The notes under the pieces were generated by a model. It was not told the origin of the DNA and did not search any database. It was given only the letters and a program-made list of their open reading frames with translations. A stretch of 64,000 nucleotides of DNA from Heptranchias perlo (lineage: Eukaryota). The first letter of the stretch is position 1; every line of letters starts with the position of its first letter. Where the stretch lies: contig NC_090357.1 of the NCBI RefSeq assembly GCF_035084215.1, positions 7,440,001-7,504,000 on the forward strand. The letters are read 5' to 3'. The position numbers were made by a program, and so were the translations under genes. Of the stretch, positions 384 through 64,000 are shown piece after piece.

Positions 384-470
384 CTGATAGAAGAAGGAAT
401 TGCGGAAAGCATTGCGTGTGTAATTGTTAGTTGGCAAACTGGAGGCAAGAAGTATATTGATCTCTGGAGC
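384..470 (-). CDS. Exon 50: APEINILLASSLPTNNYTRNAFRNSFFYQ (gene continues beyond the window)
   Basis: ctttaaag| acceptor, CAG|gtatgt donor, phase 0 to 0. Confidence 0.88.
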
Positions 471-3400: not shown

Positions 3401-6400
3401 ACTCAATATAGCAAGAGTGCTACCAACTGAGCCAAGCTGATATTCTGACACCAAAAGAAACTTCTTTGGTAAAATGGATGGTTTTCGCTTTTGGTTTGGG
3501 CAGCCAGTCTGCCATAAACCAGGCTGAGTATCAGAGATCAAATAATTGATTTCCAGTTACTAAAATAACAAGAAAGCTTTGTATAAAGAAAGCACTTCAG
3601 CTCACTTGATCCAATTACAATAAGTCCTGGCCTCATCCACCCTTCCTGGCAGCCTGTTCCAACTGTTGAACAAAGGAATCAAATCTACATCATATGAACC
3701 AATTTGCCATTGCTCGGCTTGACATACACCCGACAACAAACCAATAGGTGGAAATACAAAAAATTGGTGATTGTGGCTTAGCAATGTATACTTGCTTTTT
3801 ATTGGCTGCCCAACCTCCTCAACAGCAAAATAGACCCCTAGAAGTCTAAACCACACTGTAAACCTGTGCATCAGTAACACTTGAGTATTGAAAGCTCCAC
3901 CTGATCGCTGACAATGCTTACCCAAGGGCTGACTGGGTCTTGGCTGAAGCAAAGGAATCTTCAGGGCAACAAAACTTGCTATTTGCTCAAAGGCTCTTGT
4001 AGCTAAGGGGGAGTAAAAGGGAAGAAAAAAAAACTTTTCATTATGAAATATTAAAATCATATAATAGATTTACCATTGGTTTTATTGAGGTTGCGATGTT
4101 TGCTAATTTTGGAATTTCAAGTATTTTTTAAGTCAGAAAAGACAGTGTTTGAAGTGATGAACCAAATGAAGGAAAACAAATCTCCCTGCATGGTTACCTC
4201 TGCCTGAGGATAGTCTTAGAGTCTGAAGAGCCATTAAACAGGTCATTGATCTGGAAATATAAACTGAACGTTCCAGTGAGAGCGTATTAAAGAAAAATTT
4301 AGTCTTTGCTTTATTTTGCGCCAGTTCCTCATGATTTCTGAAGTCACTTTTATGCTGCTCTTCAGGCACCGGCTCCTGTAGCTTTGATGTCTTGGAGCTA
4401 ACGGCCCCGTCAATGTAAATCTGCCAGACTGTTTTTGACCAGTTTTTCACTGGGCCTTCCTGGCTGTTGCCAATCTTACCAGGGGGGTCGTAGGGCGCAA
4501 TGGTGATGACATCATCATGCATCACGACGTCTTCATGCACGCACATATCTATTACCTCTATCGTGATGTCTAACATTTAACAAGCTATACATATAAACAA
4601 GAAAATGCAGGGGAGGGGGGGATTACAAGCAAAACTTTATTTGGTGGCTGAACACGATGGAACATCGGTGCACGGTGTCAGAAGATAGGTTGGAACAATT
4701 CCCCGTGCCCCTCCCCATCATTGAGATGCCAATCTTGGTTTGAATGGACATCATTCTTACAGAAATTGGCGGATCATTTCGAGGACACCATTATCCATCA
4801 CCCTGTAACCAGTTCATTGACATTAGCAAAAGCCTGGGAGCAGGTCCCCCCCTCACCCCCTCCATTTTCCAGGGAACAGTTGGCGTGCGGCCCCTTGAGC
4901 AAAGAAAAGTACTTTGACACAAAAAACAATCCAGTCCCTCTCACACCTTCATTCAGAATCTGTTGAACCTGTTGAGAATGTCTCGCCTCTTCCTCCTGCT
5001 CCTCCGCTGCTAATTTTCCTGTGATTCTTCGGCGATCGTCAGCTCGTTTCTTTTCCCTCTTCACTTCCTGATCCTTCTTCACTTGCGTGATCTCTTGCTG
5101 AAGTGTGTCCTCCAGGAGACGCTGCCTTTCGCTGTGCTCTTTAGTGAGCTTCTGCAAGAAAGAAGTTTTTAAACTCGTGAAGAATTTTCATCCTTTTACT
5201 GTTGTGGAGAGCTTTCACCTCAGTGAGTGGCACTTTAAAACTAAAGCCCAACTGAAGTGTTGTCAAATCTAACATTTCAGAACCTAGAAGAACGTGCAAT
5301 TAAAGCAGGTGGCAGAACTCATGCCTGATGTAGACAGATCTATAACAGTGCAAGATACTTATCTTGTGATCTTATGAATAGGTCAATCAAAATGGCAATC
5401 CAGTACCTCTTTGAGTATGTGAGTTAGCTCCCCTCGTTCCAGTTGGTCCTGTAATTTGACTTTTTCCTCCATCATCTGCAGGTTCTGCCGTCTTTCCTTC
5501 TTCAACTGCTTCTGCATGACTATCTCTTCGTCTACCTTCTGTTCCTTCTCTATCTCTGCCTCAAGTTCCTTAATCTGCACAGAAAAACCATCGACAGAAA
5601 AACCATGAACAGAATGTTTGGATTTCGGGGTATTGAGGTAGAAAGACGCCTGTTATAGCTAACAAAATGGCGGAGTAGGTTCAATGGGCCAAATGACCTA
5701 CTCCTGCTTCTATGATTGGACAGAAAGCCTGGTGATCAAAGTGAAAATGACCTCTTGTGTATCTCAAAGTAGTACTGCACGAACTAAAGCGATGTTGCCC
5801 TGCCACGCTTTCAGAATGTAACTGTGTCTTATTGCTCATCCTCAAGTGAGCAATGAAAAGGTTTTGCTAAATTTCTATTTAATGAAGCAAGTAAGTGGAG
5901 ATTAATGAGGAAAACCAATTCCACCATAAAAAGTCTTATCAAGTCCAAGCTTTTTTTTTTGCTTACCCCAATAATTGTGATGTTGGTTGAGGGATAAATG
6001 TTGGTCAAGAGAGAACTTTCTTGCTATTCTTCAAATAGTGCCATGGGATCTTTTACATCCAACTGAGAGGGTGGATGGAGCCTTGGTTTATGAGCATACA
6101 AAGTTGACGGGCAGGAAAAGACCAGTTGGTCCATCAAGCCTGCTCCACACACCACGATGGCTGGAGTATCATGATTAGACACTTCCCACTACCTCACCCC
6201 CCCCTGCCACGTAATCTCCTGGGAGAGGCAAAAAAAAAAGCAAAAACCCAGGGCCAATAAGGGAAAAAATATTCTGGAAAATTCCTCTCCGAAACGTAAC
6301 ATCGTATCTGAAAGTTGGCACACCCTCAGTACTGCACTGAAGTGTCAGCCTGGATTGTGAGACGTACATTGAGATTTGCTGTTCACTTTTCTCAAAGTCA

Positions 6401-9400
6401 TGCGGCTACCAGTAATTCACTCTCCCTCTCTCCCAGCTAAACGAGTGTGTGTATACAGGAAGCACCTTAGCAGGAAGATGGGAAGAGAATCTGAAACAGA
6501 TACGAAGAATTACACACTCATTAAACGCTCATTTTTTTTAATGGCTTAGTTTCACCTTTTTTCTGAACGCCATTTCCCTTTCTTCCTGGTTCAGTCTTTT
6601 CTTGCTGTTCATATTCTCCAGCTGTTTCTGTAGTTCGTTCATCCTTGCCTGCCTGAATCTTTTCAGCTCATTTGCAATGCGTTCAGCTTCTTCAACACAC
6701 TGCAAAACAACAGCAGACTGTGATGCCAAGTTTTTTGTCCATAGAATGGTTACAGCACAGAAGGAGGCCATTCGGCCCATCGAGCCCATACTGGCTCTTT
6801 GTAAGAGTTAATCCCAGTTAATCCCATTCCCCCGCTCTTTCTCCGTAGCCCTGCAAATTTTTTACCCTTCCAGTATTTATCCAATTCCTTTTTGAAAGCC
6901 ACGATTGAATCTGCTTCCACCGCCCTTTCAGGCAGCGCATTCCAGATCATAGCAACTCGCTGCGTAAAAAAGATTTTCCTCATGTCGCCTTTGGTTTTTT
7001 TGCCAATCACCTTAAATCCGTGTCCTCTGGTTCTCGACCCTTCCACCAATGGAAACAGTTTCTCTTTATTTACTTTATCTAAACCCTTCCAAGAGGTGAC
7101 CAGACTCTGCAATAATCGCTTTGCCATCCAGGCCTTCGCTTTATTAGATATCTCAATATATTCTAGGTCTACAAAAGATCCAGAAAAAGCCTCACCCTTT
7201 AAACATCCTACCAGCAAATTGCTCAGATGTTTCAATGAATAATAATGTTACAAACCTTATCTGAGATGAATGGTTTCAAGCTGTCAGCAAACTCCTGAAG
7301 CCTTTCTTCTCTTAGCTCCAATAAGGCAGCAATAGATTTCAGCTCCATCACAGCTAACGCATGGCCTTCTGCTTTTTCACACAAGATTTTCATCTCTTTG
7401 TCTTCATCTTCCGTCAGCACTTGCTGGAATGCAAATCATTATTCTAGGGTTGCCATATAAACCAAAGATCTATCCACAAACATACACAGGCCAGCAGCAG
7501 AGCAGTCATATAACAGTATACTGTACTCGCTGCTCACGATGCGGTCTCCTCTATGTTGGGAAGACAAACACGGATTGGGTGATGGCTTTGCTGAACAACT
7601 CCGTTCAGTCCGTAAACGTGACCCTGAGCCTCCGGTCGCTCGTTACTTTAGTTCTCCGCCCCACTCTAACCTCACTGTCCTCGGCCTCCTACACTGTTCC
7701 AATGAAGCTCAACGCAAGCTTGAAGAACACCACCTCATCTTTCGATTAGGCACTTTGCAATCGTCCGGCCTCAACAATGAATTCACCGACTTTAGATCAT
7801 AATCACCGCTCCCATTTTCTCGGACATAAGGTGCTGTGACCATTTACATCTCCTCTGGACCCATCTTTTGTTTTTTTTACTTGTCCCATTACCACCCACT
7901 TTTGACTTGCACCATCATCCTTTTTGTCATTTAATTACTCCTGCCCTCCACCCTATCACAGGCCGTTTCCCCTTTGTTCTTTCCTGCTCCCTCCCCCCCC
8001 TTTTCCCTAGGCTCTGTACTCGCTTAAAAACAGTTAAATCTCTAACTTCTTCCAGTTCTGATGAAAGGTCATCAGCCTGAAACATTAACTTTGTTTCTCT
8101 CTCCACAGATACTGCTGAGTGTTTCCATCATTTTCTGTGTTTATTGCAGTTAGTATGTCTACTTCACACCGCTATACTGACTTGATTCCCATCTGTGGTG
8201 AACTCTGGATTCAGACTGGTTACCCGATGAGGTCAGCTCACTGACACGCAGGTGCATCCAGTCCTTGGATAACTCTGGTATTGGCAGCCATGTGTTTGGG
8301 GGGTGGGGTATATTGGGCCCATACACTATTGAGGACTGTTTTGAGCTCAGTCCAGTACTTTGCAAACCAATGGACATCGGGAATGATGACATGGAGGAAG
8401 GAAAAGTGAGGAAAGTGCCTTTGTAGGTCCGGTGTCTCCGTGCAAAGGTTGCTCTCCCAGTACTTTAGCTTCTACATTAAAACAGCATTACACTGCTGAA
8501 CCTAGAGAATGATATCTCTAGATCGGAAATGAGATTCCATAAATTAAACCCACCATCACCTCGTCCTCCCATAATCATTTAAAAAAAACCAGAAAATCCA
8601 GGCCATTCAACCAATGGAAATCAGCCTTCAGCAGACTTTAATAGGTTCAGAATTTATTTTGGGTTGCTGAGTGGATTATAATTTTTAAAAGTTATGGAAA
8701 ACTAAGGCCAGTGAGATATACCAACCGCTATACTGCAGTGTGGTGCTGCTGCCCGGAGATCCTGCTGTTGTTGCTCGAGCTTCTGCTCCAGCAGGATGTA
8801 CTGGCGAAGGTGACGGTGTAATTGGATATGGTAAACCACGCTCCCGACATCACTTCTCCCGTCTCCCGTCCTTGCTTCCGTGATTGCTTGTTCCTCCTGC
8901 AACTGCAACTAAACATTTGGAAGAAATTGAAAATCAGAATCAGAATCAGAAAAGGGAAAGATCATTAGGCCCAACAAGCCTGTCCCCTCTTAATAGAGCT
9001 CGGTCCTGCCAACATGTCTTCTCACCACAGCCCTCAGTTCCTTCTCTCTCTAGAAATACATCTAATTATCTTTTGAACCCTTTTACACTGTCTGCTTCCA
9101 TATTAGCCTATTCCAGTAGTCTATTACCTTTTGGGTGAAAATGTTTTGCCTGATGTCACATCTTTCTCCTAACTTCTAACTTGTGTCCACTGGTATTTCG
9201 AACTCTTCACCACAGTGAACAATATACCTGGATCAACTTTGTCGATTCCCTTCATAATCGTGAAAGCATCAATTAGGTCACCTTAAGGCCTCTTTACCAA
9301 AGAAAACAAGCCCAACAAGCCTCCAGTGATGTTACCTGAAGTGTCTATTGACACCACTGTGTCAGCCAATGAGTTGGAGGTGGGGCTGGACTCATGGCAG

Positions 9401-54400: not shown

Positions 54401-57400
54401 AAAGACCTACTGACCCATCCAGCCTGTCCCATAAGTGTTGTGATGCCAAATGCATCACAACACAGGCACTCCCCACCCTACAGAACTCATGTAACTTTCA
54501 GGGAAAAGCGAAAAACCAGATAAAAGCCCAGGCCATTTAGCAGAAAAAAAAGACTGGAAAATTCCTCTACGACCCCTTTAGGCGATGGAAATCTAGTCCA
54601 GTGTACAGTGTATCTAAAACAGAAACCACATTCCCAGTAAAATTCTGCTTTGATGAAATGGCCACCTAGCTGATTAAAATGTAGATGTGCGTCTCACCAC
54701 TGAAACAAGGGCTTAACGTCACCAGAAAGGACAAGTTCAGTTTGGATTCCAATGAAATATATAATAACTGTACAGACTGAATATCTCTAGTTACTTTATC
54801 AAATGGCAGCACCACATAATCAGAAACGTATTCAAAATAGTCATTCAAAAAATACGAGGCACCACATTTTACCTGCTCCCAATTCGATATCTCTGTAAGT
54901 CCCTGGAGGACACGGCTTGGGAAGATATTCGTCACCAGGAGTTCCTGTTCCCTTCAGGCAAAAGTGGGCAACAGGACAGGGGTAGCGTGTGTAATCTGAT
55001 AGCCCTAAGGGAATAGAGACAGAGAAGTAAGCACCATCAGCGATTACAATGACTGCTCGCCTGGGAGAACTTTCTGGGCCTCCACAGGCAGCTCGTGCAT
55101 TTTACCAAGATAAATACTGGGCCGCTGCCAGTGGGGGGGTTGGAGCAGCAAACGGGGGTGGGGCTGGTCGAGAGGACTGTGAAGTCAGGGGAGCAGTTTT
55201 TTAAAATTTAAACTTACCCGTTAGTGGCAGCGGCTGCTGAATAATCCTGGCACCAATGGGGATCATCAGAAACCAACTACCCAGAGGGGGGTCCTTAAAC
55301 AGGCGATAGGCCCCTTGTCAACACATGCCAGGAGCCGAACTCCTGTTTTAGGTGGCCTAAAAAATGGACACGAAGAATTTAGCAGTGGCCCGAACGCTCA
55401 TGTAGATTAGGCATGGGTCGTTTCACTGCTAAATTGGTCATCGTTGTGCTTGTATTACACCCGGAAAATTGGTGCAACCCCAAAATCCCTTGAAATTTCA
55501 CCAGAGATGGTGACAATCAACTTTTACAATACATTGTATGCTGAAGGTGAAGATATATTGACTTCCAGGACATATTTTGACAAACTAATCTTCTCATGCC
55601 TTTGTAAGATCTTATAGGATCCTATGGGAGAACGCCACTTTACTTGGCCATTCAATAATGCCAATGCAGGCATTGGTCAGAAGGCACAGGACAGCAGTCC
55701 AGTGACAACTCTCCATCCAACTTGTCTTTGCCCCTGTATCAAAGTACCAGGCCTCTGCTGGGTGTTTCTCCTCTGCAGCGGAGCTGAGTTCAGGATCTTA
55801 GCGACTTCAAGGACGATCCATCGCACTGTGACTGTGTTTTGCTGCACTGAAATGTGGCCTGGGGAGGAATCTTCAAATTTCTTAGTCTTAGTGACTTTAA
55901 CGTGAAGAAACTATAAGATCACTAGAAATGTTGCACATACCTTCAGTCTGGCACCGATACCCTGGCTCGCAAGGTTTGCAGGCAGTTTGGTTGGTAGCCC
56001 CGGAGTCAAAGGAGTATGTACCAATTGGACAAGACCTCTTAGCAGCAGATCCCATTGGACAGTAATACCCTGGTAAAAAAGTAAAAAGAATGTATCTCGC
56101 AGCCAAAGGCCAGGCCTCTGAACTTTGCTTTTTTAAAAAATTCATTCATGGGACGTGGGCATTATTATTTCTAATAATAATGATAAAGGTTCCATTAATT
56201 TATTAATTTTGATGACTGATTTTTCTTGGGAGCAGTTTACTTTATTTATAAAAAGTGCAATGCTAATGTTCTATGATGAAAAACCAATTATAAAATCGGC
56301 AACAGAGATCATCATGAAAGACTTATGGAAGCAAAATATCCTCAAAAGTTGGTACATACTCTCAAAAAATATATTCAGAAGGTAACAGATTAGAATGTGT
56401 AAACAGTTACTATTAAAGAAAGACATTGCATTCATATAGCAACTTTCACATCTGTGCTTTACAGCCAATGGACTTTTTTTGAAGTGTAGTCACTGTTATG
56501 TAGGCAAACAATTTGCAAACAGCAAGGTCCCACAAACAACAAATAAATGAATGACCAGTTAATCTGTTTTTGGGTTTGTTTGAGGGACAAATGTTGGCCA
56601 AAACACCAGAAGAATTCCCTGAATAGTGTCATGGGATCTTTAATATTCTGAGCAGGCAGAGTGGCTTCTGTTTCATATCTCATCGGAAAGACGGCATCTC
56701 CGCCAATGCAGCACACCCGAAGTACAAAGTCCGACAAACAGCAATGAGATGAATAAGCAGTTCGTCTGTTTATGGTGGTGGTGGTTGAGGGATAAATATT
56801 AGCGCCATGGGATGGTGAACAGGCAGACAGAACATTGACTCATCATCTTATATGAAAGACAGCACCTCTGACAATGCAGCACTCTCCTAGCACAGCACTA
56901 AAGTGTCAGCATAGATTATGTGCTCGTGTGGATCATGGGGCTCAAACCCATAACTTTCTGACTCAAAAGCAAGAGCGCTATCAACTGAGCCAAGCTGTCA
57001 GTCAAGAGGAACCAAACTGCCAGATTTGGTATTGAACTTTATCTGTACCTGGAGGACAAGCCACGGGAACAGAACTCTCTTCAGTACAGACGGAACCAGC
57101 TTGACACATGGTGCATTCTATAAGACTCGCAGCTCCCTCATATGCAATCATCTGACCTTCTGGGCAAGGCAGGGGCTTAGTACAGCCTGGAAAGTTAAAA
57201 GCACCTTGTTAAAAACTGATTAACCCAACTGATTTCACCGACACAGCGATTAGATTAAAAGAGAATCTTAGGCCTCAAGCTTTACATTGTACGTTACTTA
57301 GTTAGACTATTACCCCCATTGCATCCCATTTCTATCTCGTTCTTGGACTACCTGGAATGCTCAGCCAGCTCTCACCTGCAGGACAGTAATAGCCAAGGGG

Positions 57401-60400
57401 ACAAGGTTTGCCTTTCTCAGGGTCACTGGTGTTTGGAGCTGCTGTCGATTGACGTGCAATGCACAAAAATCCTGCAGCACAGAGACCTGCGATGTGACCT
57501 CCACGACAATATCTCCCTGGGAATAGAAGGAAGTGAATGAAGCAATTCCAGCAGGAAGTACTAGAAAACTCCAGCAGATCGTGTAAGAAAGCAAATCCAG
57601 CAGATAGCGTTAGAAACAGTTTATTAAACAGATTTGCACTTTGAACATTTAAATCCTGCTAATAAAATGCATCTTGTACAATTAATAGCCTGTAGTATTA
57701 AAGGTACCAATGTAGGTTGTCTGGGGCTATTATTAAATACAGCCTTGACCTTGTAAAGAAAATGGACCATTTCCTACATCAAATATGTCTTTAAGGACTA
57801 AAAACATTGTATAAACTGAGAGGCTCTGTTAAAGTCTTTACTTAGTATCCATGTTTCAGTATCTGCCTCCAAAATGCACAGCAGCTCTCAGTCTAAAGAG
57901 GGACTAATTTGCACTGGCTTGCTACTTACCCTAATAAACGTCTTTTTTTGAACGACGAGAATCAATATTACAATCTTCTCCTACCTTCCGATCCATTTTT
58001 CAATTTTTCCTTTTTGTTTTCTACTTCCCTCTCCAAGGAAAATGGAGAGAGCGACAGACAGACACACAGAAAGATATAACTTAAGTTAACTTCATACCCA
58101 TTGGACAGTCAGAACAACCTGAAGCAGTTGTCAGTCCTGCTGCATTCTCATCGGTGAACGTACCATCAGGGCAGGGGGTGGGTGAGAGGCTGCTGGCCGG
58201 GCAGTAACTGTATGGTGGACATATCGTAGGGATTGTGGAGTTTCCTTGGCAGTAGCTACCTGCAGGACATGGATTGCAGCCTATGCTGCCAACACTGGGC
58301 TGATAAGCACCTGTACAATGGACAGAATGATGCAGGTTAACGAGTCAGGAAAAACAGACACCTCAATTTTGATTACTATTGCTATTTCAGATTTTTCTCC
58401 CCTAATTGTCCATGGGTTTTTATCTGTTATTTTGCCTTTCCCAGGAGATGAGCTGGATCTGGGTGGGCTGGGACTGTCTTAATCATGAAGCAGAGAGCAT
58501 TGTAACCGTATGGGACAGGCTCGATGGTCTTATCCTGTCCGGCATTTTTCGCATGTTCGTAATCTGTTTTGGGTGTTGTTCATATTAAATTTTAGAAAGG
58601 TTAACAACAAATAAGCAATGAAGCTCTGACTCCTACCTGGTGGGCATGCGTGTGGTGACGCTGTAAAGTTCGGACAAAAGAAGCCAGCAGGACAAACAAA
58701 ATGTGGAGGATTTGGTACATCGACTGCTACGTTGCCAGGACAGTAATAGCGTTCCATGCAAGGCCCAGTGGGATTGGACAGCCCCACTCCTCCACAGTAA
58801 TAGCCAGGAAAACATGGATGGCAATCAGCTAAGGAGGCCCCATGTGTGCTCGGGTTCAGAGTTCCCCTGGGGCAAGGAACGGCTAAGATAGTGCCTGTCA
58901 AGAAAATAAGCATGATAAAATAAGGCCATTTTCCTTGATGCCGACATTAATCTGTTACAAAAACACGCATAAACTTGTGACCAATTTGTTCAACTAATTA
59001 TATCGCATTTAGAGCCTGCGTGTCGTGTTATAGAATGGAATGATCCTCTGGCTTCCGTATATCCAGTGCATTGCAGCTACGTCAAAGCCTAAAAGCCTCA
59101 AAGTAAAGTGGCATTGTACAAGCTTTGAGAGCAGGACAAAACCATTTGTCTTTAATCGGTGTGTGACTTCTGCTGGCATTGCCAAGTGTCCGGCCTGGCG
59201 ACACTGGTGGAGTATTATTGAAGGAAAAGTCATTCAAAATGGGTGACCAGTTAACTCTGTCACCTGCCACATTCCAGTCACCAAGTCACTGGAATGTTCC
59301 TGGCTAGAGATATTTTTTTAATATAACGAGTAAAAACTAGTATTTGTCATCAAATAGAACATGCTGTCTGCCAGCCCATGTTTGAATCCTCATGAAAAAA
59401 CACTGAACCCATTCACACAGCTTTCAATACACACAGGACTGCCACGGACACGATGGGCCGAATGGTCTCCTTCTGTGCCGTAAATTTTCTATGTTTCTAT
59501 GTAATAATTTTGACTTTGGGCGATCAGAGGGATGTACAATGAATGTATGAATCATCAATGCCCGAAGTCAAAATTACCCCCAGTTTTGAATATACATCCA
59601 TCCCATCCACCACCCTAAACATTCACTCCCTTCACCACCGGCGCACTGTGGCTGCAGTGTGTACCATCCACAGGATGCACTGCAGCAACTCGCCAAGGCT
59701 TCTTCGACAGCACCTCCCAAACCCGCGACCTCAACCATCTAGAAGGACAAGGGCAGCAGGCGCATAGGAACAACACCACCTGCACGTTCCCCTCCACGTC
59801 ACACACCATCCCGACTTGGAAATATATCGCCGTTCCTTCATCGTCGCTGGGTCAAAATCCTGGAACTTCCTACCTAACAGCACTGTGGGAGAACCGTCAC
59901 CACACGGACTGCAGCGGTTCAAGAAGGCGGCTCACCACCACCTTCTCAAGGGCAATTAGGGATGGGCAATAAATGCTGGCCTTGCCAGCGACGCCCGCAT
60001 CCCATGAACGAATTTAAAAAAACAGATGTGCACAATACCTTCCTCACAGAAATGTCCCCTGGGACAGGGGTGGTTTAACCCTTCCTTGGGAGTTGCTATC
60101 TTGGCTCCCGTAGCGCAGAGATAGCCAGCTAAGCAGTTGCCAGAAGGTTCCGACAGGCCTGGAGAGTCACAGAATCGCCCAGCCGGGCAGTGGACACAAT
60201 CTGAAGAGTTGGTCATTCCAGTTTTATTGGAAAAGGTTCCTAGGAACAAGAAACTGTATCAGTTAAGTGTTAACTGGTATAATGACTACAGCAAACTACA
60301 TGCTGAGGTCTGTAGATATTATGTAATTGTAGACAGCAGTAGAAGATAAGTTGTTTGTTGTGGTAAATGCGAGAAACAAATATTATTATTTCAGGGTCTA

Positions 60401-63400
60401 TGCTTACATTTTGCACCACATTTGGTAAGAAAGACAATGTTTATATAATTCCTTACCAAATTTCTCAGAAATGTCTCAAAGCACTTCACATAAAATGATT
60501 TATTTTAAAGTGCAGTGAATGTCGTTATTTCGGCAAACACAACAACTATTTTGGGGCACAGCAAGATCCCACAGCTGCGATGATTTGAATGATCACCTAA
60601 TCCGGTTTTCAGTGATGTTGGTTACAAGAAGAATGTTGGCCAGGATTGAACTCCCCGTTCTTCTCTGGATTGTACCAAAGGATCAAAACCACAGCATGGG
60701 CTGCTGAGGTATTGGTGTAATGTCTTATCTGAAGGATGACATCTGACAATACAGCACTCCCTCAGTACTGCAGTGGAGCATCCGCCTAGATTATGTGCTC
60801 AGGTCCAAGGGCTTGAATCCATAAACTTCTTATTCAGAGGCAGGCTGACACTTTTATTGGTTACTGTAGTTTTCTTTAAAGACATGTCACTTTTTCAGAC
60901 ATGTTCTTTGAGAAAATGCCTAACCAACTGATGAAACTCATTTTGTATATATAAGTCTCACAAATGTCCACTGGGTTTTGATAGAGCAAATAGGGAGAAT
61001 CTGTTTCCACTGGCAGGAGGACACAGATTTAAAATAATTGGCAAAAAATCCAGGGGGAAACTGAAAAGAATTTTTTTTTACGCAGCAAGTTATGGCGATC
61101 TGGAATACATTTCCTAAAAAGGTGATGGAAGCAGATTCAATAGTAACTTTCAAAAAGATATATGCTTGAAAAGCAGAAATTTGCAGGGCTGTAGGCAAAA
61201 AGCAGGGGAATGGGGTGAGACTAATTGGATAGCTCTTCCAAAGAGCTGGCACAGACACGATGGGCTGAACGGCCTCCTTCTGCTCTGTACGATTCTATGT
61301 GCTAACAAGTTTCTGATTGTTGACTTCATATTGACTCCAGTCAGATGAACACTTATGTTATAGGGATACGATTGGTTACCTATTGGACAGGGTGCACCAT
61401 CATTGTAAGTGCCAGCTGGACAGTAATGTCCAGAGGGACACAGATCAGCATTTTCCATCCCTCGGCGAGGACATGTTCTTCCTGAAGGACACGGCAAACA
61501 ATTAACTTGACCCTGCAAAAGACAAGATTGATGCTGATTTGATTCCATTCCACTCCCGGTAGTGTAACACATCACTTGCGTAAAAGTCGGGCAAATGATT
61601 TGTTGCAGCCAGTGATTCGTTGTTGTCTGGGAATCGCCATTTTCACTGCTTCAGACTTCTTATACAAAATTAGTGTACTCATGCAGCAAACCGTACTGCA
61701 CGCGATAAGGATAGAAACTCGCAGGATATTGTGCTACATCAAGTTACTTCCCCCTATTAGACTTTAGCTCAAAATGACAGGCTAAAGTGAATAGTTAAAT
61801 TCAATACTGATTGAATTTTTACACCTTTATAGTACAAATACCATGTGCAGTAGGCAAGTTAAATATGTCTCTTTGTGTTAGCCAATTAAGATCTTCTATA
61901 TAACTCACAAGTGACCACAGTTGTTACATATAAATGTGAATTACACACTTAACTATTACACATCCTCTATTTTCCTCCAAAAGGATTCCAACAAAAAAAA
62001 TCACTCGGTGAGCACAGTGTGCGAAGGGAGTAGCTGACAGTGTATTTATACCACAACTTCAGTTTTCACGTTGCCGTAACTGTAGCCTTGTAATTTAACT
62101 CTGGAGTCAGGATGGGACCCCTGAACTCACACCACTTGGGTTTTACACTGCATGGATTATAACTCAAGTATGGTGTGAAAATGGGTATAAAAACTGCTCG
62201 AGACTGTCTCCATGCATTCGAAGGTTACACAGAGTTGAGCGCTCTGTTTAAAGGTGACTTTGTACTCAGGAAGTAGACATTCCCATTTACACTCTTAAAT
62301 CTTTTAAAATGTAGCTGAGTTGGGAGCCATGCACAGCCCATGCACAGAGCACTTTGCTGCATTGATTAATTCCAATTGGAGGCAGACATTATAAACAAGA
62401 GAGGGGCTAGAGAAGCTGGGATTGTTCTCCTTAAAGCAGAGAAGGTTCAGGGGAGATTTAATCGAGGTGTTCAAAATCATGAAAGGATTTGACAGAGTAG
62501 ATAAGGAGAAACTGTTTCTAGTGGCAGAAGGGTCGGTAACCAGAGGACACAGATTTAAGGTAATTGGCAAAAGAACCAGAGGCGAGATGAGGAGAAATCT
62601 TTTTACGCAGTGAGTTGTTATGATCTGGAATGCGCTGCCTGAAAGGGTGGTGGAAACAGATTCAATAATAACTTCCTAAAGGGAATTGGATAAATACTTG
62701 AAGGAGAAAAATTTGCAGGGCCACGGGGAAAGAGTAGAGGAATGGGACTAATTGGATAGCTCTTTCAAAGAGCAGGCACAGGTACGATGGGTCGAATGGC
62801 CTCCTTCCGTACTGTATCATTCTATGATTCTGTGATTCTATGAAGGTACTGTCTGGCTAGTATCAATACTGCAGCTACCAGTCTCCGACCAACCTCTGGT
62901 ATCAGACCACATCACCCACCAGATTGTGCTATTGTAACACAATTGCGTGCAAGTTAGCATCTGGGGAGGGGAAACACCCCAAAGATTCCGGTCTCTGAAG
63001 TTCAAGGTAAAGGGGAAATCTGTTTGTTCATCAACATTATGAGCCAGTCCCTGACGTTCTTACCTCTCCTGGCTGGAAATAACCTCTTTCACAGGGAATC
63101 TCTTGGATAAAACCTTTGGGGCAGTAATGTCCAGCAGGACATGGATAACCTGTAACACCATCAGTTGGATTAGGTACTCTAGCTTGACCCAGACAGACAT
63201 AGCCAGGGTCACAGGGCAGACTGCGGCCTGCAGAAAAATACAATGCAAGGAACTAGGATAAGACATTTTTCAAAAGCTCAAACAGTGTGTAATGACCGTC
63301 TAACTATGCAAGAAATGAGAGTATCATTTCAATAACTTCTTAAACAAACAACTCCATCAGTTTTCAATGACCGTCCATTACAAGTTCGTTTTACACCTTC

Positions 63401-64000
63401 TCTCATGGTGCACAGCCCTTGTAAGAATCTTACTGTAGCTAATAATTAAAAGTCAGATCCTTAGTCCCTGTTTCAAAGTTATTTTTCTCCCCTTCTTTGC
63501 AACACTTCTTTTCCAGGTCAAGAAGTCAGGCAGGCAACTTTCTCTCAGGCCTCTGCTAATATCGCTCCATAAGCAACTGTCAGAAGGTGCTCAGGGGAAC
63601 TTGGAGATGACCTGTCCTCCAGTTTTCTCTTCTTCCTGAAGAAAAATCACCTTGTCTTCATTGAACACCACTTTCTGATGAACCGGGTGAGATCAGAAAA
63701 ACGCAATGTTGTCAATCATATCAAACTGCGACATCCATTCGGTATCAGATTGTCCACCAACACATGCCACGGGACCACGTTAAACCAGACATCATACTTC
63801 CTGCTCTTTAAAGACATTCTCATTTATGGCAAAGTAGATGGGTAGAGAGATTTTCCCACCAACACACCCGCTCCTGTCCCCCAGTTCTCGAGGCCCCACC
63901 ATGCTGATCACAGAATGAGATCCCATTTTGATTCCTTCCTCTGGGAGCTTTACTTTTCCTACTTACGTGTGATGGTTGTTCCTGGAAGGCAGTAGTGTCC
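384..64000 (-). CDS. Spliced gene, partial at both ends: giant Cys-rich (GCC2/GCC3, ephrin-receptor-like repeat) single-pass membrane protein with PxTG-repeat and coiled-coil cytoplasmic tail; 50 exons, 2931 aa in window
   Basis: 50 exons bounded by AG/GT with matching phases at every junction; lengths sum to 8793 nt with no internal stop; coherent domain order. From memory it resembles the uncharacterised family of zebrafish si:ch211-286b4.4 / mouse Gm9195 (not verified). Confidence 0.88.
1595..1970 (-). mobile_element. Degenerate CR1/HER1-like LINE 3' fragment
   Basis: ggccattcggccc tail plus decayed ORF2 C-terminal coding similar to other copies in the window. Confidence 0.7.
2163..2314 (-). 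CDS. Exon 49: RPFIDIMDAQWTCEGKLVP...VIYRFGIFIVQL
   Basis: cattacag| acceptor, AAC|gtgaga donor, phase 1 to 0. Confidence 0.9.
2495..2665 (-). CDS. Exon 48: DLFILAEEDWANLLAQSPLFKLLKEINEHL
   Basis: tggtag| acceptor, G|gtacag donor, phase 1 to 1. Confidence 0.8.
3075..3440 (-). mobile_element. DeuSINE-like tRNA-derived SINE, internally deleted
   Basis: Reverse complement of head cttggctcagttggtagcactcttg and of the body seen at 50405-50855. Confidence 0.75.
4198..4569 (-). CDS. Candidate optional (cassette) exon, frame-preserving; not counted among the 50
   Basis: Open 124 codons, gttag| acceptor, G|gtaacc donor, phase 1 to 1; sequence has no recognisable motif. Confidence 0.4.
4947..5151 (-). 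CDS. Exon 47: KLTKEHSERQRLLEDTLQQE (coiled coil)
   Basis: cttgcag| acceptor, G|gtgtga donor, phase 0 to 1. Confidence 0.83.
5407..5574 (-). CDS. Exon 46: IKELEAEIEKEQK (coiled coil)
   Basis: tgtgcag| acceptor, GAG|gtactg donor, phase 0 to 0. Confidence 0.87.
6556..6699 (-). CDS. Exon 45: CVEEAERIANELKRFRQARMNELQKQL (coiled coil)
   Basis: ttttgcag| acceptor, AAG|gtgaaa donor, phase 0 to 0. Confidence 0.87.
6740..7090 (-). mobile_element. CR1/HER1-like LINE 3' fragment
   Basis: ORF segment KGLDKVNKEKLFP-TRGHGFK-FFTQRV-WNALP-FKKELD plus gggccgaatggcctccttctgtgctgta tail. Confidence 0.9.
7256..7423 (-). CDS. Exon 44: QVLTEDEDKEMKIL...LLELREERLQEF
   Basis: attccag| acceptor, AAG|gtttgt donor, phase 0 to 0. 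Confidence 0.85.
7511..8148 (+). mobile_element. Penelope-like element 3' fragment (GIY-YIG endonuclease remnant)
   Basis: VYCTRCSRCGLLYVGKT then, after a frameshift, LGDGFAEQLRS...RKLEEHHLIFRLGTLQSSGLN; tail tctgatgaaaggtcatcagcctgaaacattaact. Confidence 0.85.
8726..8908 (-). CDS. Exon 43: LQLQEEQA...RHLRQYILLEQKLEQQQQ
   Basis: gtttag| acceptor, GCG|gttggt donor, phase 0 to 0. Confidence 0.8.
9775..9919. mobile_element. Short MITE with terminal inverted repeats
   Basis: Left ggccctgaattcccttg versus right (reverse complement) ggccctgaatttccttg. Confidence 0.75.
9997..10137 (-). CDS. Exon 42: MENEDLP...LRKELVLQIKEREHLIEEQ
   Basis: Translated by hand; atgtag| acceptor, CAG|gtactt donor, phase 0 to 0. 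Confidence 0.8.
10215..10660 (-). mobile_element. Young CR1/HER1-like LINE 3' fragment
   Basis: Open ORF2 C-terminus YRERLDRLGLYSLESRR-RGDLIEVYKI-TRGH-WNELP; near-identical to 18815-19260. Confidence 0.93.
10864..11061 (-). CDS. Exon 41: EQNSGEAV...LKEDHVGRLSNLLRVQSEERKEQ
   Basis: ctctcag| acceptor, CAC|gtaaga donor, phase 0 to 0. Confidence 0.82.
11700..12295. repeat. Minisatellite, 39-bp unit acatgtggtcaaacactggatgagtacagggctgggggt (about 15-16 copies, 33- and 37-bp variants)
   Basis: Direct tandem repeats without unique spacers. Confidence 0.95.
12581..12876 (-). CDS. Exon 40: ALHVLKLEW...LFRLEASKIVLQEIRKH...YNTLQ
   Basis: tgacag| acceptor (tandem CAGCAG, 5' boundary less certain), CAG|gtacaa donor, phase 1 to 0. 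Confidence 0.72.
12897..13320 (+). mobile_element. DeuSINE-like SINE
   Basis: tRNA-like head, gagggagtgctgcattgtc-ggtgcc-tttc core, L2-like tail. Confidence 0.8.
13596..13664. repeat. Tandem repeat, 22-bp unit cccacctctggctcccttgacc, 3 copies
   Basis: Three exact copies, next to an L2 fragment. Confidence 0.9.
13665..13965 (+). mobile_element. L2-like LINE RT fragment
   Basis: KKPTLNSSVLASYCPMSNLRFLFKGLEHVV resembles the KKP-LD-NYRPISNLPFLSK-LE motif of L2 reverse transcriptases. Confidence 0.75.
14176..14461 (-). CDS. Exon 39: LQEQQREE...MKEVLTDLAKQRR...ELQNKLV
   Basis: caactag| acceptor; donor G|gtatag chosen for phase match (nearby alternatives exist), phase 0 to 1. Confidence 0.78.
14585..15285 (+). 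mobile_element. Non-LTR retrotransposon (CR1/L2 group, second family) 3' fragment
   Basis: YKAQVRRVMEYSPLAW...IQDKAARLI...WNSLP; tail gggcaataaatgccggcctcgccagcgacgcccacatcccatgaacgaataaaaaa; siblings at 36277-36497, 42826-43139, 59598-60022, 1110-1230. Confidence 0.88.
15535..15692 (+). mobile_element. L2-like LINE 3' end
   Basis: gaccaagcttttggtcacctg...gtgaagcgccttgggac...aaaggcgctacataaatgcaagttgttg; sibling at 43195-43360. Confidence 0.75.
15935..16118. mobile_element. Foldback MITE with ggggtagatttt TIR
   Basis: Left ggggtagattttaaacttgcca versus right (reverse complement) ggggtggatgttcaacttgctgcca. Confidence 0.75.
16190..16622 (+). mobile_element. CR1/HER1-like LINE 3' fragment
   Basis: Decayed LEFRRLR-DLIEVFK coding and gggctgaatggcctactcctgctcctatg tail; sibling at 28925-29262 on the minus strand. 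Confidence 0.85.
17368..17461 (-). CDS. Exon 38: RFYIEKHAAETIHLEVTLLTDEMKRICWIMEE
   Basis: Translated by hand; cgtcag| acceptor, GAG|gtgtgt donor, phase 2 to 0. Confidence 0.75.
18807..19590 (-). mobile_element. Young CR1/HER1-like LINE 3' fragment with open 216-codon ORF2 C-terminus
   Basis: RDLGV...LYRALVRPHLEYCVQFWSP...LERVQKRFTRM...RGDLIEVYKI; short tandem tail (ttctatga)n. Confidence 0.95.
20800..20956 (-). CDS. Exon 37: Pro/Ser-rich linker GPGISSRPQAGPTPCPEP...ALTR
   Basis: Translated by hand; ctaaacag| acceptor, AG|gtaagc donor; its only open frame (phase 1 to 2) is the one needed to bridge exons 36 and 38. Confidence 0.72.
21030..21285 (-). mobile_element. DeuSINE-like SINE, internally deleted
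   Basis: Reverse-complement tRNA-like head at about 21250-21283 and tail at about 21030-21115. Confidence 0.7.
21315..22056. mobile_element. Non-autonomous DNA transposon (PIF/Harbinger-like MITE)
   Basis: TIRs tggccaaatcttgctgga / gggccagatcctactgga (reverse complement), flanked by 3-bp direct repeat AAT. Confidence 0.78.
22920..23370 (+). mobile_element. CR1/HER1-like LINE 3' fragment
   Basis: SLEKRLRDDLIEVFKIMKGFD-RGHKYKI-WNSLP; siblings at 44205-44790 and 53710-54150. Confidence 0.9.
23804..23999 (-). CDS. Exon 36: GILFGGIYCFGDYQLI...EMLPLLKQVISLLE
   Basis: gtttcag| acceptor, G|gtaacc donor, phase 0 to 1. Confidence 0.85.
24484..24606 (-). CDS. Exon 35: VKTLLTQEFQ...LEHLRDLAELCAQEAK
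   Basis: ctcacag| acceptor, AAG|gtgaac donor, phase 0 to 0. Confidence 0.87.
24777..24961 (-). CDS. Exon 34: VDKEETEQQLLY...RYQQ
   Basis: atatag| acceptor, CAG|gtgggc donor, phase 1 to 0. Confidence 0.87.
25737..26864. repeat. Minisatellite, 35-bp unit tcatcactcattgtctctactgcctttccatcctc (about 32 copies)
   Basis: Direct tandem repeats; explains the three overlapping ~400-aa ORFs. Confidence 0.97.
26865..27200 (-). mobile_element. Old CR1-like LINE fragment running into the minisatellite
   Basis: Reverse complement reads decayed YEEKLKKLGLF...RRDIIE...TKGHRFK...RKFF. Confidence 0.7.
27641..27782 (-). CDS. Exon 33: VEEKVAALEDTIDLLQ
   Basis: ctttag| acceptor, G|gtaatc donor, phase 0 to 1. 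Confidence 0.87.
28429..28569 (-). CDS. Exon 32: LDALEEELSCRRAYW (coiled coil)
   Basis: gttcag| acceptor, AAG|gtacgg donor, phase 0 to 0. Confidence 0.87.
28925..29262 (-). mobile_element. CR1/HER1-like LINE 3' fragment
   Basis: RLRDDLIEVFKMVKGF-RGHNLKI-WNSLP-FKTEI. Confidence 0.9.
29719..29876 (-). CDS. Exon 31: GLIPITLGARSIDPITGEIGPVVGARIEPQTG
   Basis: ttctag| acceptor, ATG|gtaagc donor, phase 1 to 0. Confidence 0.92.
30779..30949 (-). CDS. Exon 30: GMIPFASTG...IPDPGGSDLEVPILG...MEDPDGK
   Basis: cccacag| acceptor, G|gtactt donor, phase 1 to 1. Confidence 0.9.
31060..31300 (+). mobile_element. CR1/HER1-like LINE 3' end
   Basis: tggaatgcgctgcctgaaagggtgg...gatgggccgaatggcctccttctgta tail. 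Confidence 0.85.
32078..32488 (-). CDS. Exon 29: GVVVPLG...EPLSG...helical insert...NNGGSV
   Basis: cgttcag| acceptor, G|gtaagc donor, phase 1 to 1. Confidence 0.9.
32895..33315 (+). mobile_element. DeuSINE-like SINE
   Basis: tRNA-like head, cttttggatgagacgttaaaccgagg core, tail aaaggtgctatataaatgcag. Confidence 0.82.
33440..33830 (-). mobile_element. L2-like LINE RT fragment containing YADD
   Basis: HRYGISFCMYADDTQL and SAAFDT motifs in adjacent frames. Confidence 0.82.
34063..34398 (-). CDS. Exon 28: PxTG region (CPGTG, DPETG, HPQTG, EKTG, DPNTG)
   Basis: tcctag| acceptor, G|gtaaca donor, phase 1 to 1. Confidence 0.92.
34978..35080. repeat. GA-rich compound microsatellite, interrupted by a CR1 tail (35085-35260) and resuming at 35261-35300
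   Basis: (GA)n with GAGC/GTGC variants. Confidence 0.9.
35727..35954 (-). CDS. Exon 27: PxTG region start (DRLTG, HPQTG, DSATG)
   Basis: tgacag| acceptor, G|gtcagt donor, phase 1 to 1. Confidence 0.9.
36823..36980 (-). CDS. Exon 26: VAGLVEAL...ECQRLNAWAVLGEGLGAQL
   Basis: ttctcag| acceptor, G|gtaaga donor, phase 2 to 1. Confidence 0.88.
37899..38119 (-). CDS. Exon 25: IRVEVERRRQIAVEFEE (helical)
   Basis: ctttcag| acceptor, CG|gtattt donor, phase 0 to 2. Confidence 0.85.
39545..39682 (-). CDS. Exon 24: VKTLYQKLAKETDSLKELW
   Basis: tatag| acceptor, AAG|gtgaat donor, phase 0 to 0. Confidence 0.88.
40270..40409 (-). CDS. Exon 23: DEFWDYEQQIDLEFFSSNTFYQILLKQS
   Basis: Translated by hand; ttttag| acceptor, GAG|gtaaga donor, phase 1 to 0. 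Confidence 0.9.
40885..41077 (-). CDS. Exon 22: LLFRKCSWP...YNFDDYSSKG (cytoplasmic juxtamembrane)
   Basis: Translated by hand; cttcag| acceptor, G|gtgagt donor, phase 0 to 1; basic RK directly after the hydrophobic helix. Confidence 0.9.
41266..41475 (+). mobile_element. Solo LTR (210 bp)
   Basis: Ends TGTTA...TAACA, perfect 5-bp TSD GTGTG (41261-41265, 41476-41480), internal AATAAA near 41408. Confidence 0.85.
42150..42338 (-). CDS. Exon 21: YVRVMPVGGQC...KPNW plus transmembrane helix LVICSLLIASIIMVGVGAGLL
   Basis: tttcag| acceptor, CTG|gtgagt donor, phase 0 to 0; about 24 uncharged residues continuing into LLFRK. Confidence 0.92.
42826..43139 (-). mobile_element. Second-family LINE 3' fragment
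   Basis: Reverse complement of about 14925-15240. Confidence 0.88.
43715..43877 (-). CDS. Exon 20: IENLYNTNSEFDWGGFRDL...FSYRFTQPGVYVFQLSSNPNKKM
   Basis: Translated by hand; ttctag| acceptor, ATG|gtgcgt donor, phase 2 to 0. Confidence 0.9.
43982..44174 (-). CDS. Exon 19: ENMTLP...FSGIFNPTTCIHIGSIIMFTVSNEHYPVYD
   Basis: cttttag| acceptor, AT|gtatgt donor, phase 1 to 2. Confidence 0.88.
44205..44790 (+). mobile_element. CR1/HER1-like 3' fragment split by a nested insertion at about 44370-44553
   Basis: Collinear with 22981-23360 on both sides of the insert. Confidence 0.82.
44986..45090 (-). CDS. Exon 18: EKGFLGVYDPDPKKLKSLLL...NVFP
   Basis: Translated by hand; ttttgcag| acceptor, G|gtactt donor, phase 1 to 1. 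Confidence 0.82.
45428..46045. mobile_element. Non-autonomous DNA transposon (PIF/Harbinger-like MITE)
   Basis: TIRs ggggtagaacttgga / ggcctagaaattgga (reverse complement), 3-bp direct repeat ATT; related internal sequence at about 20140-20685 and 55070-55480. Confidence 0.75.
46464..46581 (-). CDS. Exon 17: VEVSLNHVGRVL...PVHLVETS
   Basis: ctccgcag| acceptor, G|gtgagc donor, phase 0 to 1. Confidence 0.8.
47211..47382. mobile_element. Foldback MITE
   Basis: Left cttcatcacctgggcagtaatct pairs with right agattactgcccaggtggtgaag; deletion derivative at 52435-52553. Confidence 0.8.
47592..47771 (-). CDS. Exon 16: VCTSPADYQGFDGVLGLCLC...CNQECR
   Basis: ttttcag| acceptor, AAG|gtaata donor, phase 0 to 0. 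Confidence 0.9.
48480..48895 (+). mobile_element. DeuSINE-like SINE
   Basis: tRNA-like A/B boxes, ggtgccgtctttcggatgaggcgttaaactgagg core, L2-like tail. Confidence 0.85.
48907..49071 (-). CDS. Exon 15: PSDSRCTCAV...YDICREG...EWAEYCSLK
   Basis: ttcttag| acceptor, AAG|gtctgt donor, phase 0 to 0. Confidence 0.88.
49917..50140 (-). CDS. Exon 14: GHYCPKVS...CRKGTYNP...CFSCGS...CICLRNGQTFQ
   Basis: tttacag| acceptor, CAG|gtgaga donor, phase 1 to 0. Confidence 0.92.
50405..50855 (+). mobile_element. DeuSINE-like SINE, near full length
   Basis: tggctcagtgggtagcac...ggttcaagtccc head, central core, tail gtaaagtgctttgg...aaatgcaagatctttc. Confidence 0.88.
51577..51825 (-). CDS. Exon 13: VIGAIKPVKCPLGY...CPAGYYG...CRAGVVC...CPKG
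   Basis: ttgatcag| acceptor, G|gtatgt donor, phase 1 to 1. Confidence 0.9.
52119..52262 (-). CDS. Exon 12: GYYCSRSMPRLPCPVGYYC...CPVGHYCPQ
   Basis: gttccag| acceptor, G|gtaagc donor, phase 1 to 1. Confidence 0.9.
52965..53124. mobile_element. Foldback MITE, almost fully palindromic
   Basis: agggtaaattccccaatcccatgctctcag pairs with ctgggagcttgggattgggggaaatttaccct; related copy at about 29472-29605. Confidence 0.82.
53170..53298 (-). CDS. Exon 11: GILDCWPCPAGTYG...CDLGRFCPEG...CPAG
   Basis: Translated by hand; ctctag| acceptor, G|gtactc donor, phase 1 to 1. Confidence 0.9.
53710..54150 (+). mobile_element. CR1/HER1-like LINE 3' fragment
   Basis: Highly similar to 22945-23365. Confidence 0.88.
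54873..55004 (-). CDS. Exon 10: GLSDYTRYPCPVAHFC...CPPGTYRDIELGA
   Basis: Translated by hand; cccttag| acceptor, G|gtaaaa donor, phase 1 to 1. Confidence 0.88.
55941..56069 (-). CDS. Exon 9: GYYCPMGS...CPIGTYS...CEPGYRCQTEG
   Basis: ttttaccag| acceptor, G|gtatgt donor, phase 1 to 1. Confidence 0.92.
56440..57000 (-). mobile_element. DeuSINE-like SINE(s), two partial copies
   Basis: Reverse-complement head at about 56940-57000 and duplicated core segments. Confidence 0.72.
57049..57186 (-). CDS. Exon 8: GCTKPLPCPEG...CTMCQAGSVC...ACPPG
   Basis: Translated by hand; ctttccag| acceptor, G|gtacag donor, phase 1 to 1. Confidence 0.9.
57376..57516 (-). CDS. Exon 7: GRYCRGGHIAGLCAAGFLC...CPLGYYCPAG
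   Basis: Translated by hand; ttcccag| acceptor, G|gtgaga donor, phase 1 to 1. Confidence 0.92.
58098..58310 (-). CDS. Exon 6: GAYQPSVGSIGCNPCPAGSYC...CPPYSYC...CPDGTF...CPMG
   Basis: Translated by hand (absent from ORF track); gtacag| acceptor, G|gtatga donor, phase 1 to 1. Confidence 0.92.
58637..58894 (-). CDS. Exon 5: PCPRGTLNP...CFPGYYC...CPAGFFC...CPPG
   Basis: cttgacag| acceptor, G|gtagga donor, phase 1 to 1. Confidence 0.92.
59598..60022 (+). mobile_element. Second-family LINE 3' fragment
   Basis: Near-identical to about 14868-15285; ends about 15 bp from the exon 4 donor. Confidence 0.9.
60039..60239 (-). CDS. Exon 4: GTFSNKTG...CPAGRFC...CPRGHFCEEG
   Basis: ttcctag| acceptor, G|gtattg donor, phase 1 to 1. 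Confidence 0.92.
60445..60850 (-). mobile_element. DeuSINE-like SINE, decayed
   Basis: cagcactccctcagtactgca and ctagattatgtgctca motifs in reverse orientation. Confidence 0.7.
60975..61300 (+). mobile_element. CR1/HER1-like LINE 3' fragment
   Basis: Similar to 62480-62845. Confidence 0.82.
61380..61512 (-). CDS. Exon 3: GQVNCLPCPSGRTC...CPSGHYCPAG...CPIG
   Basis: ttttgcag| acceptor, G|gtaacc donor, phase 0 to 1. Confidence 0.92.
62400..62845 (+). mobile_element. CR1/HER1-like LINE 3' fragment
   Basis: FSLKQRRFRGDLIEVFKIMKGFD-TRGHRFK; tail ttctatgattctgtgattctatg. Confidence 0.92.
63064..63227 (-). CDS. Exon 2: Cys repeats RSLPCDPGYVC...CPAGHYCPKG...CERGYFQPGE
   Basis: ttttctgcag| acceptor, GAG|gtaag donor, phase 1 to 0. 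Confidence 0.9.
63967..64000 (-). CDS. Exon 1 in window (5'-truncated): GHYCLPGTTIT
   Basis: GHYC Cys-repeat motif followed by donor C|gtaagt, phase 1; not in ORF track. Confidence 0.8.

Follow-up and report, generated by a model that had tools for sequence, protein, structure and literature searches.

The described protein ranked nearest to the predicted Cys-repeat fold considered here is the Chlamydomonas mastigoneme protein MST1, which forms extracellular ciliary filaments. Extracts of PMC11015965 describe nine Ig-like domains, a poly(proline) helix and a Cys-rich domain in which 678 residues span 26 nm, and MST1 is described in similar extracts as anchored via PKD2. ELAPOR1 is a single-pass membrane tether of ~1,000 residues with a similar Cys-repeat fold, MAM domains, copper-bridged tetramers and no long tail. 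Cysteine-repeat modular proteins (CRMPs) have 5-9 C-terminal transmembrane (TM) helices (extracts of PMC9670195), and Eph-type receptor tyrosine kinases carry a cytoplasmic kinase. Extracts of four other sources (PMC12337314, PMC12528612, 10.1101/650218 and 10.1101/2024.03.25.586530) served as background. We compared these systems with a gene on the minus strand of a 64,000-nucleotide stretch of Heptranchias perlo (C36:7440001-7504000, on contig NC_090357.1; hereafter the window). Its predicted product has uninterrupted Cys repeats, a membrane-proximal module, a single hydrophobic segment and a long tail with PxTG repeats. MST1 was the best Foldseek match of the Cys-repeat fold, at a sub-threshold score. 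However, its Cys domain is ten times shorter, it has no TM of its own, and no sequence-level match to it was found.

The window holds the 3′ third of one intact gene, whose exon chain, open frame and single hydrophobic segment were directly computed and whose splicing is predicted. Exons were found by six-frame translation (Cys-repeat and charged segments on the minus strand) followed by homologue-guided mapping. They were chained by a dynamic programme on splice sites and phase, with six boundaries corrected by hand and one exon added. The model (63227..384) contains 50 whole exons totalling 8,723 nt, or 2,908 codons, with all introns GT..AG and zero internal stops. The TM exon (42338-42150) closes the first ~1,123 codons, and ~1,785 follow it. 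The initial annotation had likewise listed 50 stop-free exons, with 2,931 codons; the 23-codon gap reflects boundary choices. Nearly all exons (49/50) match one or more of 11 homologues at E<=1e-3, the exception being exon 4569-4480, which matched none of the 11 and was placed by splice signals and phase alone. A single 19-residue segment has a Kyte-Doolittle mean above 2 (2.68; the runner-up reaches 1.90). As a control for chance, the motif CxxGx[YFWH]C was counted over 464 kb, where it occurs 166 times in 106 minus-strand frames compared with 5 times on the plus strand. Contigs from three runs of one sample, guessed to be RNA, were also compared with window positions 32001-52000 and three terminal exons. 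The matches displayed were repeats, with no exon-exon joint among the rows displayed, and are neutral as evidence.

Analysis of the flanks (360 kb upstream and 40 kb downstream) revealed that the gene extends past both window edges, as had been proposed. On its 3′ side the gene continues below position 1 for 5.1 kb, with four further exons and a stop codon, and ends at approximately -5,066. On the 5′ side, 104 modelled exons reach to approximately +321.7 kb, at least 258 kb past the window edge. Joined together, the exons number ~159 and encode at least 8,985 codons with a terminal stop only; this is a minimum length, as the first exon was not located. The 104 upstream exons are an automatic model, several of them visibly over-extended, and the length is accurate to a few percent. 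The earlier description of an intact, uncharacterised single-pass protein agrees with this open frame and its one hydrophobic segment. The repeat region comprises 6,597 residues with 10.4% Cys, 204 CxxGx[YFHW]C motifs and 77 N-glycosylation sequons, and the cytoplasmic tail ~2,000 residues. Scans of +322 to +392 kb gave no convincing signal-peptide exon; one good candidate for an extra exon (348630-348404, Cys-containing and phase-compatible with 321717) was excluded from the counts. No repeat-like segment above 28.5 bits remained outside the model, indicating that no broken exon had been skipped.

Along the protein, all on the minus strand, the window begins with the 3′ part (63967..64000) of a Cys-repeat exon (64160-63967) that straddles the edge as a 51st exon. 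Thirteen Cys-repeat exons (49917..63227) with CxxGxYC / CxxGTY units form the membrane-proximal end of the ~6,600-residue stalk and are colinear with the Owenia models P0121 and P0122. The assignment of these repeats to Ephrin_rec_like (GCC2/GCC3, Pfam PF07699) was reproduced for exon 50138-49917 (28.8 bits, cut-off 23.1) and for Owenia (26.8). The membrane-proximal module (six exons, 43715..49071) contains small Cys-rich and beta-rich domains with the motifs NLYNTN..FD.G.F and F..PG.Y.F; it matched no Pfam family and is present in 26/26 rows of the family tree. Next is the exon with the sole TM helix (42150..42338), placed by hydrophobicity. From this helix and a basic stretch in the following exon we infer a type I topology, and orthologues carry signal peptides. 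The first cytoplasmic segment (five exons, 36823..41077) has long helices and a conserved DEFWDY motif. It is succeeded by two [DH]PxTG beta-hairpin repeat blocks with a helical hairpin between them (five exons, 29719..35954; pLDDT mostly 80-95), and by a predicted four-helix bundle and subsequent helix (five exons, 23804..28569). A charged helical, coiled-coil-like spacer of ~675 aa follows in 12 frame-preserving exons (4480..20956), including the homologue-unsupported exon noted above. This 12-exon block is found in the Mobula, lungfish, parrot and Owenia models and is absent from ray-finned fish. It is skipped by the models of Chiloscyllium, Scyliorhinus, Heterodontus and Narcine, and the Mobula model ends within it; either a large cassette or an artefact of annotation could account for the difference. 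The last three exons (384..2647) encode the first part of a C-terminal zincin-like domain, whose HCxxH motif and stop lie in the four exons 1.5-5.1 kb past position 1. Pfam-type scans of homologues that jointly span the tail found no kinase family, unlike the Eph-type receptors, and the annotated combination of PxTG repeats, a long helical tail and no kinase is thus retained.

Homologue searches were limited to 2,000 or 5,000 residues. A search with the PxTG exon returned 113 proteins. Sharks and rays gave the best matches (71-74%), followed by coelacanth, lungfish and ray-finned fish, and the proteins with names were mostly si:dkey-103g5.4. In a tree of the membrane-proximal and C-terminal domains, the window gene, si:dkey-103g5.4 and Owenia form one clade (support 100/100), which is more weakly supported by the C-terminal domain alone (88/84). 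The zebrafish protein si:dkey-103g5.4 (XP_073779763) scores 831 bits on the window locus compared with 100 on a second, paralogous locus, and the window gene is single-copy in the H. perlo genome. Judged by these searches and trees, the window gene is the cartilaginous-fish orthologue of zebrafish si:dkey-103g5.4. Orthologues from ray-finned fish, sharks, rays, coelacanth, lungfish, a parrot and Owenia share the membrane-proximal module, single TM, DEFWDY, two PxTG blocks, helical bundle and HCxxH domain. However, the ray-finned fish forms are ~1,800 aa long, with a signal peptide right before the last repeat and a spacer of ~280-440 residues, whereas the window gene has repeats totalling at least 6,600 residues and a ~1,030-residue spacer. 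The orthogroup is already annotated, yet unstudied in the literature searched, in which si:dkey-103g5.4 is not named and no functional paper on the family was found. That literature contains no description of a long-stalk form in vertebrates, of a family split into two paralogues, of repeats conserved in register or of the pseudo-zincin domain.

The second locus was found by a repeat-exon search, which revealed an array at C36:17.55-17.80 Mb. It covers C36:17,512,000-17,800,000 on the minus strand, ~10 Mb from the window gene. Its 117 frames bearing the motif are joined by the membrane-proximal module seen in the window gene, a TM near 17,538,000 and a short tail without PxTG repeats. The C-terminal domain is also shared and here has the motif HTMAH (17,526,566-17,526,228), and the start of the gene lies at or past 17.80 Mb. 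A protein named si:ch211-286b4.4 (P0241) gave 7 non-repeat high-scoring pairs (401 bits) here and none on the window locus, and the two group together in the tree (98/91). The relative named in the initial annotation, si:ch211-286b4.4, is therefore of the paralogue type rather than the orthologue, and mouse Gm9195, which that annotation named with it, would putatively belong to this type as well. Members of this type (turkey 'zonadhesin-like', frog, caecilian, lungfish LOC122808514 and crinoid) also have a giant Cys-repeat ectodomain, the membrane-proximal module, a single TM and a C-terminal HxxxH domain. However, they lack PxTG repeats, have a much shorter tail in vertebrates, share ~24% identity outside the repeats and fall in a separate clade.

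The second-locus C-terminal exon retrieved 286 clusters at E<=0.001. The 20 examined of 150 listed included si:ch211-286b4.4, the turkey, frog, caecilian, lungfish and crinoid proteins, a parrot protein, two proteins of the unicellular holozoan Chromosphaera and a transcript of Cryptobia, a kinetoplastid flagellate. Chromosphaera and Cryptobia bear out the predicted relatives in flagellated protists, and are the only two non-animal sources named among the members examined. One Chromosphaera protein has PxTG repeats (7,076 aa) and the other does not (6,410 aa). Since both types occur in this organism, the split between them is likely to predate animals, with deep branches moderately supported (89/86). 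Linkage of the two paralogues seems to occur in other fish also: both mormyrid proteins lie on one contig of 23,539,562 bases, and the lungfish has LOC122808494 and LOC122808514. A divergent PxTG-type member (P0112, P0114, P0115, P0130) recurs often in metagenome assemblies, forming clusters of 19-30 members, and is apparently intron-poor.

Owenia and the other homologues compared are gene predictions. The model P0121 of the annelid Owenia aligns over 2,931 columns at 36% identity. With its longer isoform, P0122, identity is 39% across 5,068 columns, in an alignment that starts at model residue 3660, crosses the TM and stops at 8588. Moreover, 15/18 repeat windows are best matched in register with P0122, suggesting that the array is not freely shuffled and that repeat order has been retained since the annelid-vertebrate split. 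The two shark paralogues show no repeat colinearity (Spearman -0.19, p 0.17, 55 windows). Across the family the membrane-proximal module, TM and C-terminal domain are constant. The full-length unicellular homologues run from a signal peptide through 2,700-4,400 residues of uninterrupted repeats to this core, a layout with no head domain. The Cryptobia member has a signal-peptide-like start and no long stalk.

Ray-finned fish models begin at model residue ~739 (window-based numbering). Among 45 hand-picked N-termini (44 from ray-finned fish or unnamed, 1 from coelacanth), 31 have a hydrophobic 10-mer above 2.0 within the first 45 residues, and most of these read as a signal peptide directly ahead of the last repeat. 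Rough, motif-based spacer lengths are 276-438 residues in ray-finned fish, 771 in the parrot, 1,028 in lungfish, 1,031 in the window gene, 1,330 in Owenia and 1,523 in Chromosphaera. On these predicted proteins, ray-finned fish have lost nearly all repeats and the long helical spacer and have kept a short form. Joint loss of stalk and spacer as a rule was considered and rejected, as the paralogue has a long stalk with a short tail.

An AlphaFold model of the zebrafish tail (76 sequences; mean pLDDT 72, pTM 0.56) folds the two PxTG blocks as beta-hairpins and also shows a four-helix bundle and, at the C-terminus, a compact alpha/beta domain. This domain has a pLDDT of ~90, modelled as part of a 1,089-residue model. 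Foldseek of the tail model against the PDB gave nothing at E 0.001, and the sole viral match passing that threshold is a 59-angstrom-rmsd artefact. Compact sub-threshold matches were to selecase (E 0.5, TM-target 0.55), the BlaR1 protease domain, and viral SprT and M48 proteins (E 0.018-0.12). The likeness to minigluzincin, SprT-like and M48-M56 zincins lies in an HxxxH helix after a beta-hairpin; the domain had no Pfam or PDB sequence match. Its motif is H-C-x-x-H with a conserved Asp nine residues further. In aligned orthologues the two His are kept in 72/74 and 71/73 and the Asp in 71/72, and position 2 is Cys in 70/74 rows. Family-wide (145 aligned of 148 hits), the His are kept in 114/145 and 112/145, and position 2 is A, C, S, T, V, I or F. 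Zincin metallopeptidases use the Glu of HExxH for catalysis, whereas Glu was found in 0/145 here, which makes proteolysis unlikely; metal binding is possible. ESM Atlas likened the domain to small (127-185 aa) unnamed phage and rotifer proteins (0.91-0.93), a lead to possible stand-alone relatives, and found nothing above 0.84 for the TM/PxTG region. A model of the eel protein spanning the last repeat through the first PxTG block (mean pLDDT 66, pTM 0.40) ranked mastigoneme chains and ELAPOR1 first, at sub-threshold E-values, then thyroglobulin, tumour necrosis factor receptor (TNFR) and Eph ectodomains. A PDB sequence search found nothing for Owenia P0121, a profile of orthologues (A2) gave EphB2 alone (E 0.009), and VIA searches with whole models were filled by generic helical bundles.

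The reading we favour, to which we give about an even chance, is that the gene encodes a type I membrane protein, 9,000 residues or longer, that serves as a structural surface rod or tether with a non-catalytic scaffold tail. It is favoured because there is no head domain and because, on the MST1 scale (678 residues to 26 nm), ~6,600 residues of disulfide-bonded repeats would form an extended stalk of ~250 nm. Such a stalk could set a distance or build a hair-like filament. The membrane-proximal module and TM are the conserved core, and the tail (PxTG beta-repeats, helical bundles, long spacer and dead zincin-like domain) would bind cytoskeleton or axoneme and hold the rod. An adhesion or sensory receptor tied to an internal scaffold had been suggested initially; the scaffold is kept in this reading, and 'receptor' finds no support, as no ligand-binding head or catalytic domain was found in the gene or its homologues. 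The cilium or sperm role also suggested there may be argued on circumstantial grounds, and we put a site at the flagellar or ciliary membrane, including that of sperm, somewhat below an even chance. It is suggested by the likeness to MST1, the flagellate habit of Cryptobia, flagellated cells in Chromosphaera and testis enrichment of the zebrafish si:ch211-286b4.4-type paralogue. The last two points come from extracts of preprints.

A filament formed by this protein on cilia or the sperm surface, if confirmed, would give animals a counterpart to the mastigonemes of protists. The full-length form would rank among the largest single-pass proteins in vertebrates, yet the database models found contain it in fragments only, under names such as 'uncharacterized' or 'zonadhesin-like'. 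The family ranges from kinetoplastids to birds. Zebrafish has the short orthologue and, by annotation, a long-stalk paralogue, so that the roles of the core and of the stalk could be studied apart. A wider reading may be entertained: a pan-eukaryotic family of megadalton 'anchored rod' proteins with two pre-animal paralogues, which equip the cilia or sperm tails of animals with a self-anchored hair resembling a mastigoneme, or with a 250-nm molecular ruler. On this view the repeat register would have been stable since the annelid-vertebrate split, the tail would end in a pseudo-zincin binding domain, and ray-finned fish would supply a natural stalk-deletion mutant. Taken jointly, these claims are speculative and on the unlikely side.

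Several features would also suit a tether or contact sensor of secretory vesicles or extrusive organelles (acrosome, cortical or mucus granules), ELAPOR1- or CRMP-like, with the repeats facing the lumen or the outside. ELAPOR1 is the top VIA match of the repeat and, in the source extracts, tethers proacrosomal vesicles; CRMPs, whose Cys repeats are related, regulate exocytosis in Tetrahymena and Toxoplasma according to similar extracts, and the testis enrichment of the paralogue would fit here too. We nevertheless consider this unlikely: CRMPs have several TM helices where the window protein has one, a 250-nm rod is 10x the ELAPOR1 tetramer span (267 angstrom, from extracts), and searches detected neither a MAM nor a mannose-receptor-like domain. 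A signalling or mechanosensory receptor, in which force or ligand on the ectodomain alters the tail and the HCxxH..D site binds metal or recruits effectors, seems slightly more doubtful still. The tail is better conserved than the stalk across the family, the His and Asp are near-invariant in orthologues, and the persistence of stalk-less ray-finned fish forms fits a length-independent function. However, the searches turned up neither a catalytic domain nor a known signalling module, roughly one in five family matches has replaced the two His, and there is no distal head domain.

The remaining explanations concern the gene rather than its product. Ray-finned fish and coelacanth models begin at exon 50140, cartilaginous-fish database models are fragments and no RNA junction was seen, as would be expected of two transcription units, an upstream secreted Cys-repeat polymer gene and a short teleost-like receptor starting near that exon. 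We hold this to be very unlikely, since the junction is in frame with GT/AG and is crossed by the P0008, Owenia and Chromosphaera records, and the three frames of intron 51576-50141, when read, held no evident signal-peptide or stop-bearing exon. Decay or lack of expression is hardly credible. Nothing positive speaks for it apart from one degenerate-looking upstream exon (249449-249252, with a GC donor), whereas the 8,985 codons end in the only stop, no broken exon was left among repeat-like segments above the cut-off, and identity to other cartilaginous fish is 58-79%.

The flanks examined showed no LAYN, which the gar model carries as a fusion. The next upstream gene, on the same strand at +386,500 to +394,000, has exons at +386 to +391 kb judged by eye to be ankyrin-repeat and IkB-like; one exon was scanned and gave no Pfam hit. 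Two intronic minisatellites lie at window positions 11699-12298 and 25738-26863, with a 39-bp unit x 16 and a 35-bp unit x 32, respectively. Intronic open frames at 18893-19636, 10296-10733, 28915-29334 and 6753-7247 resemble C-terminal fragments of long interspersed nuclear element (LINE) reverse transcriptase, putatively of the CR1 type.
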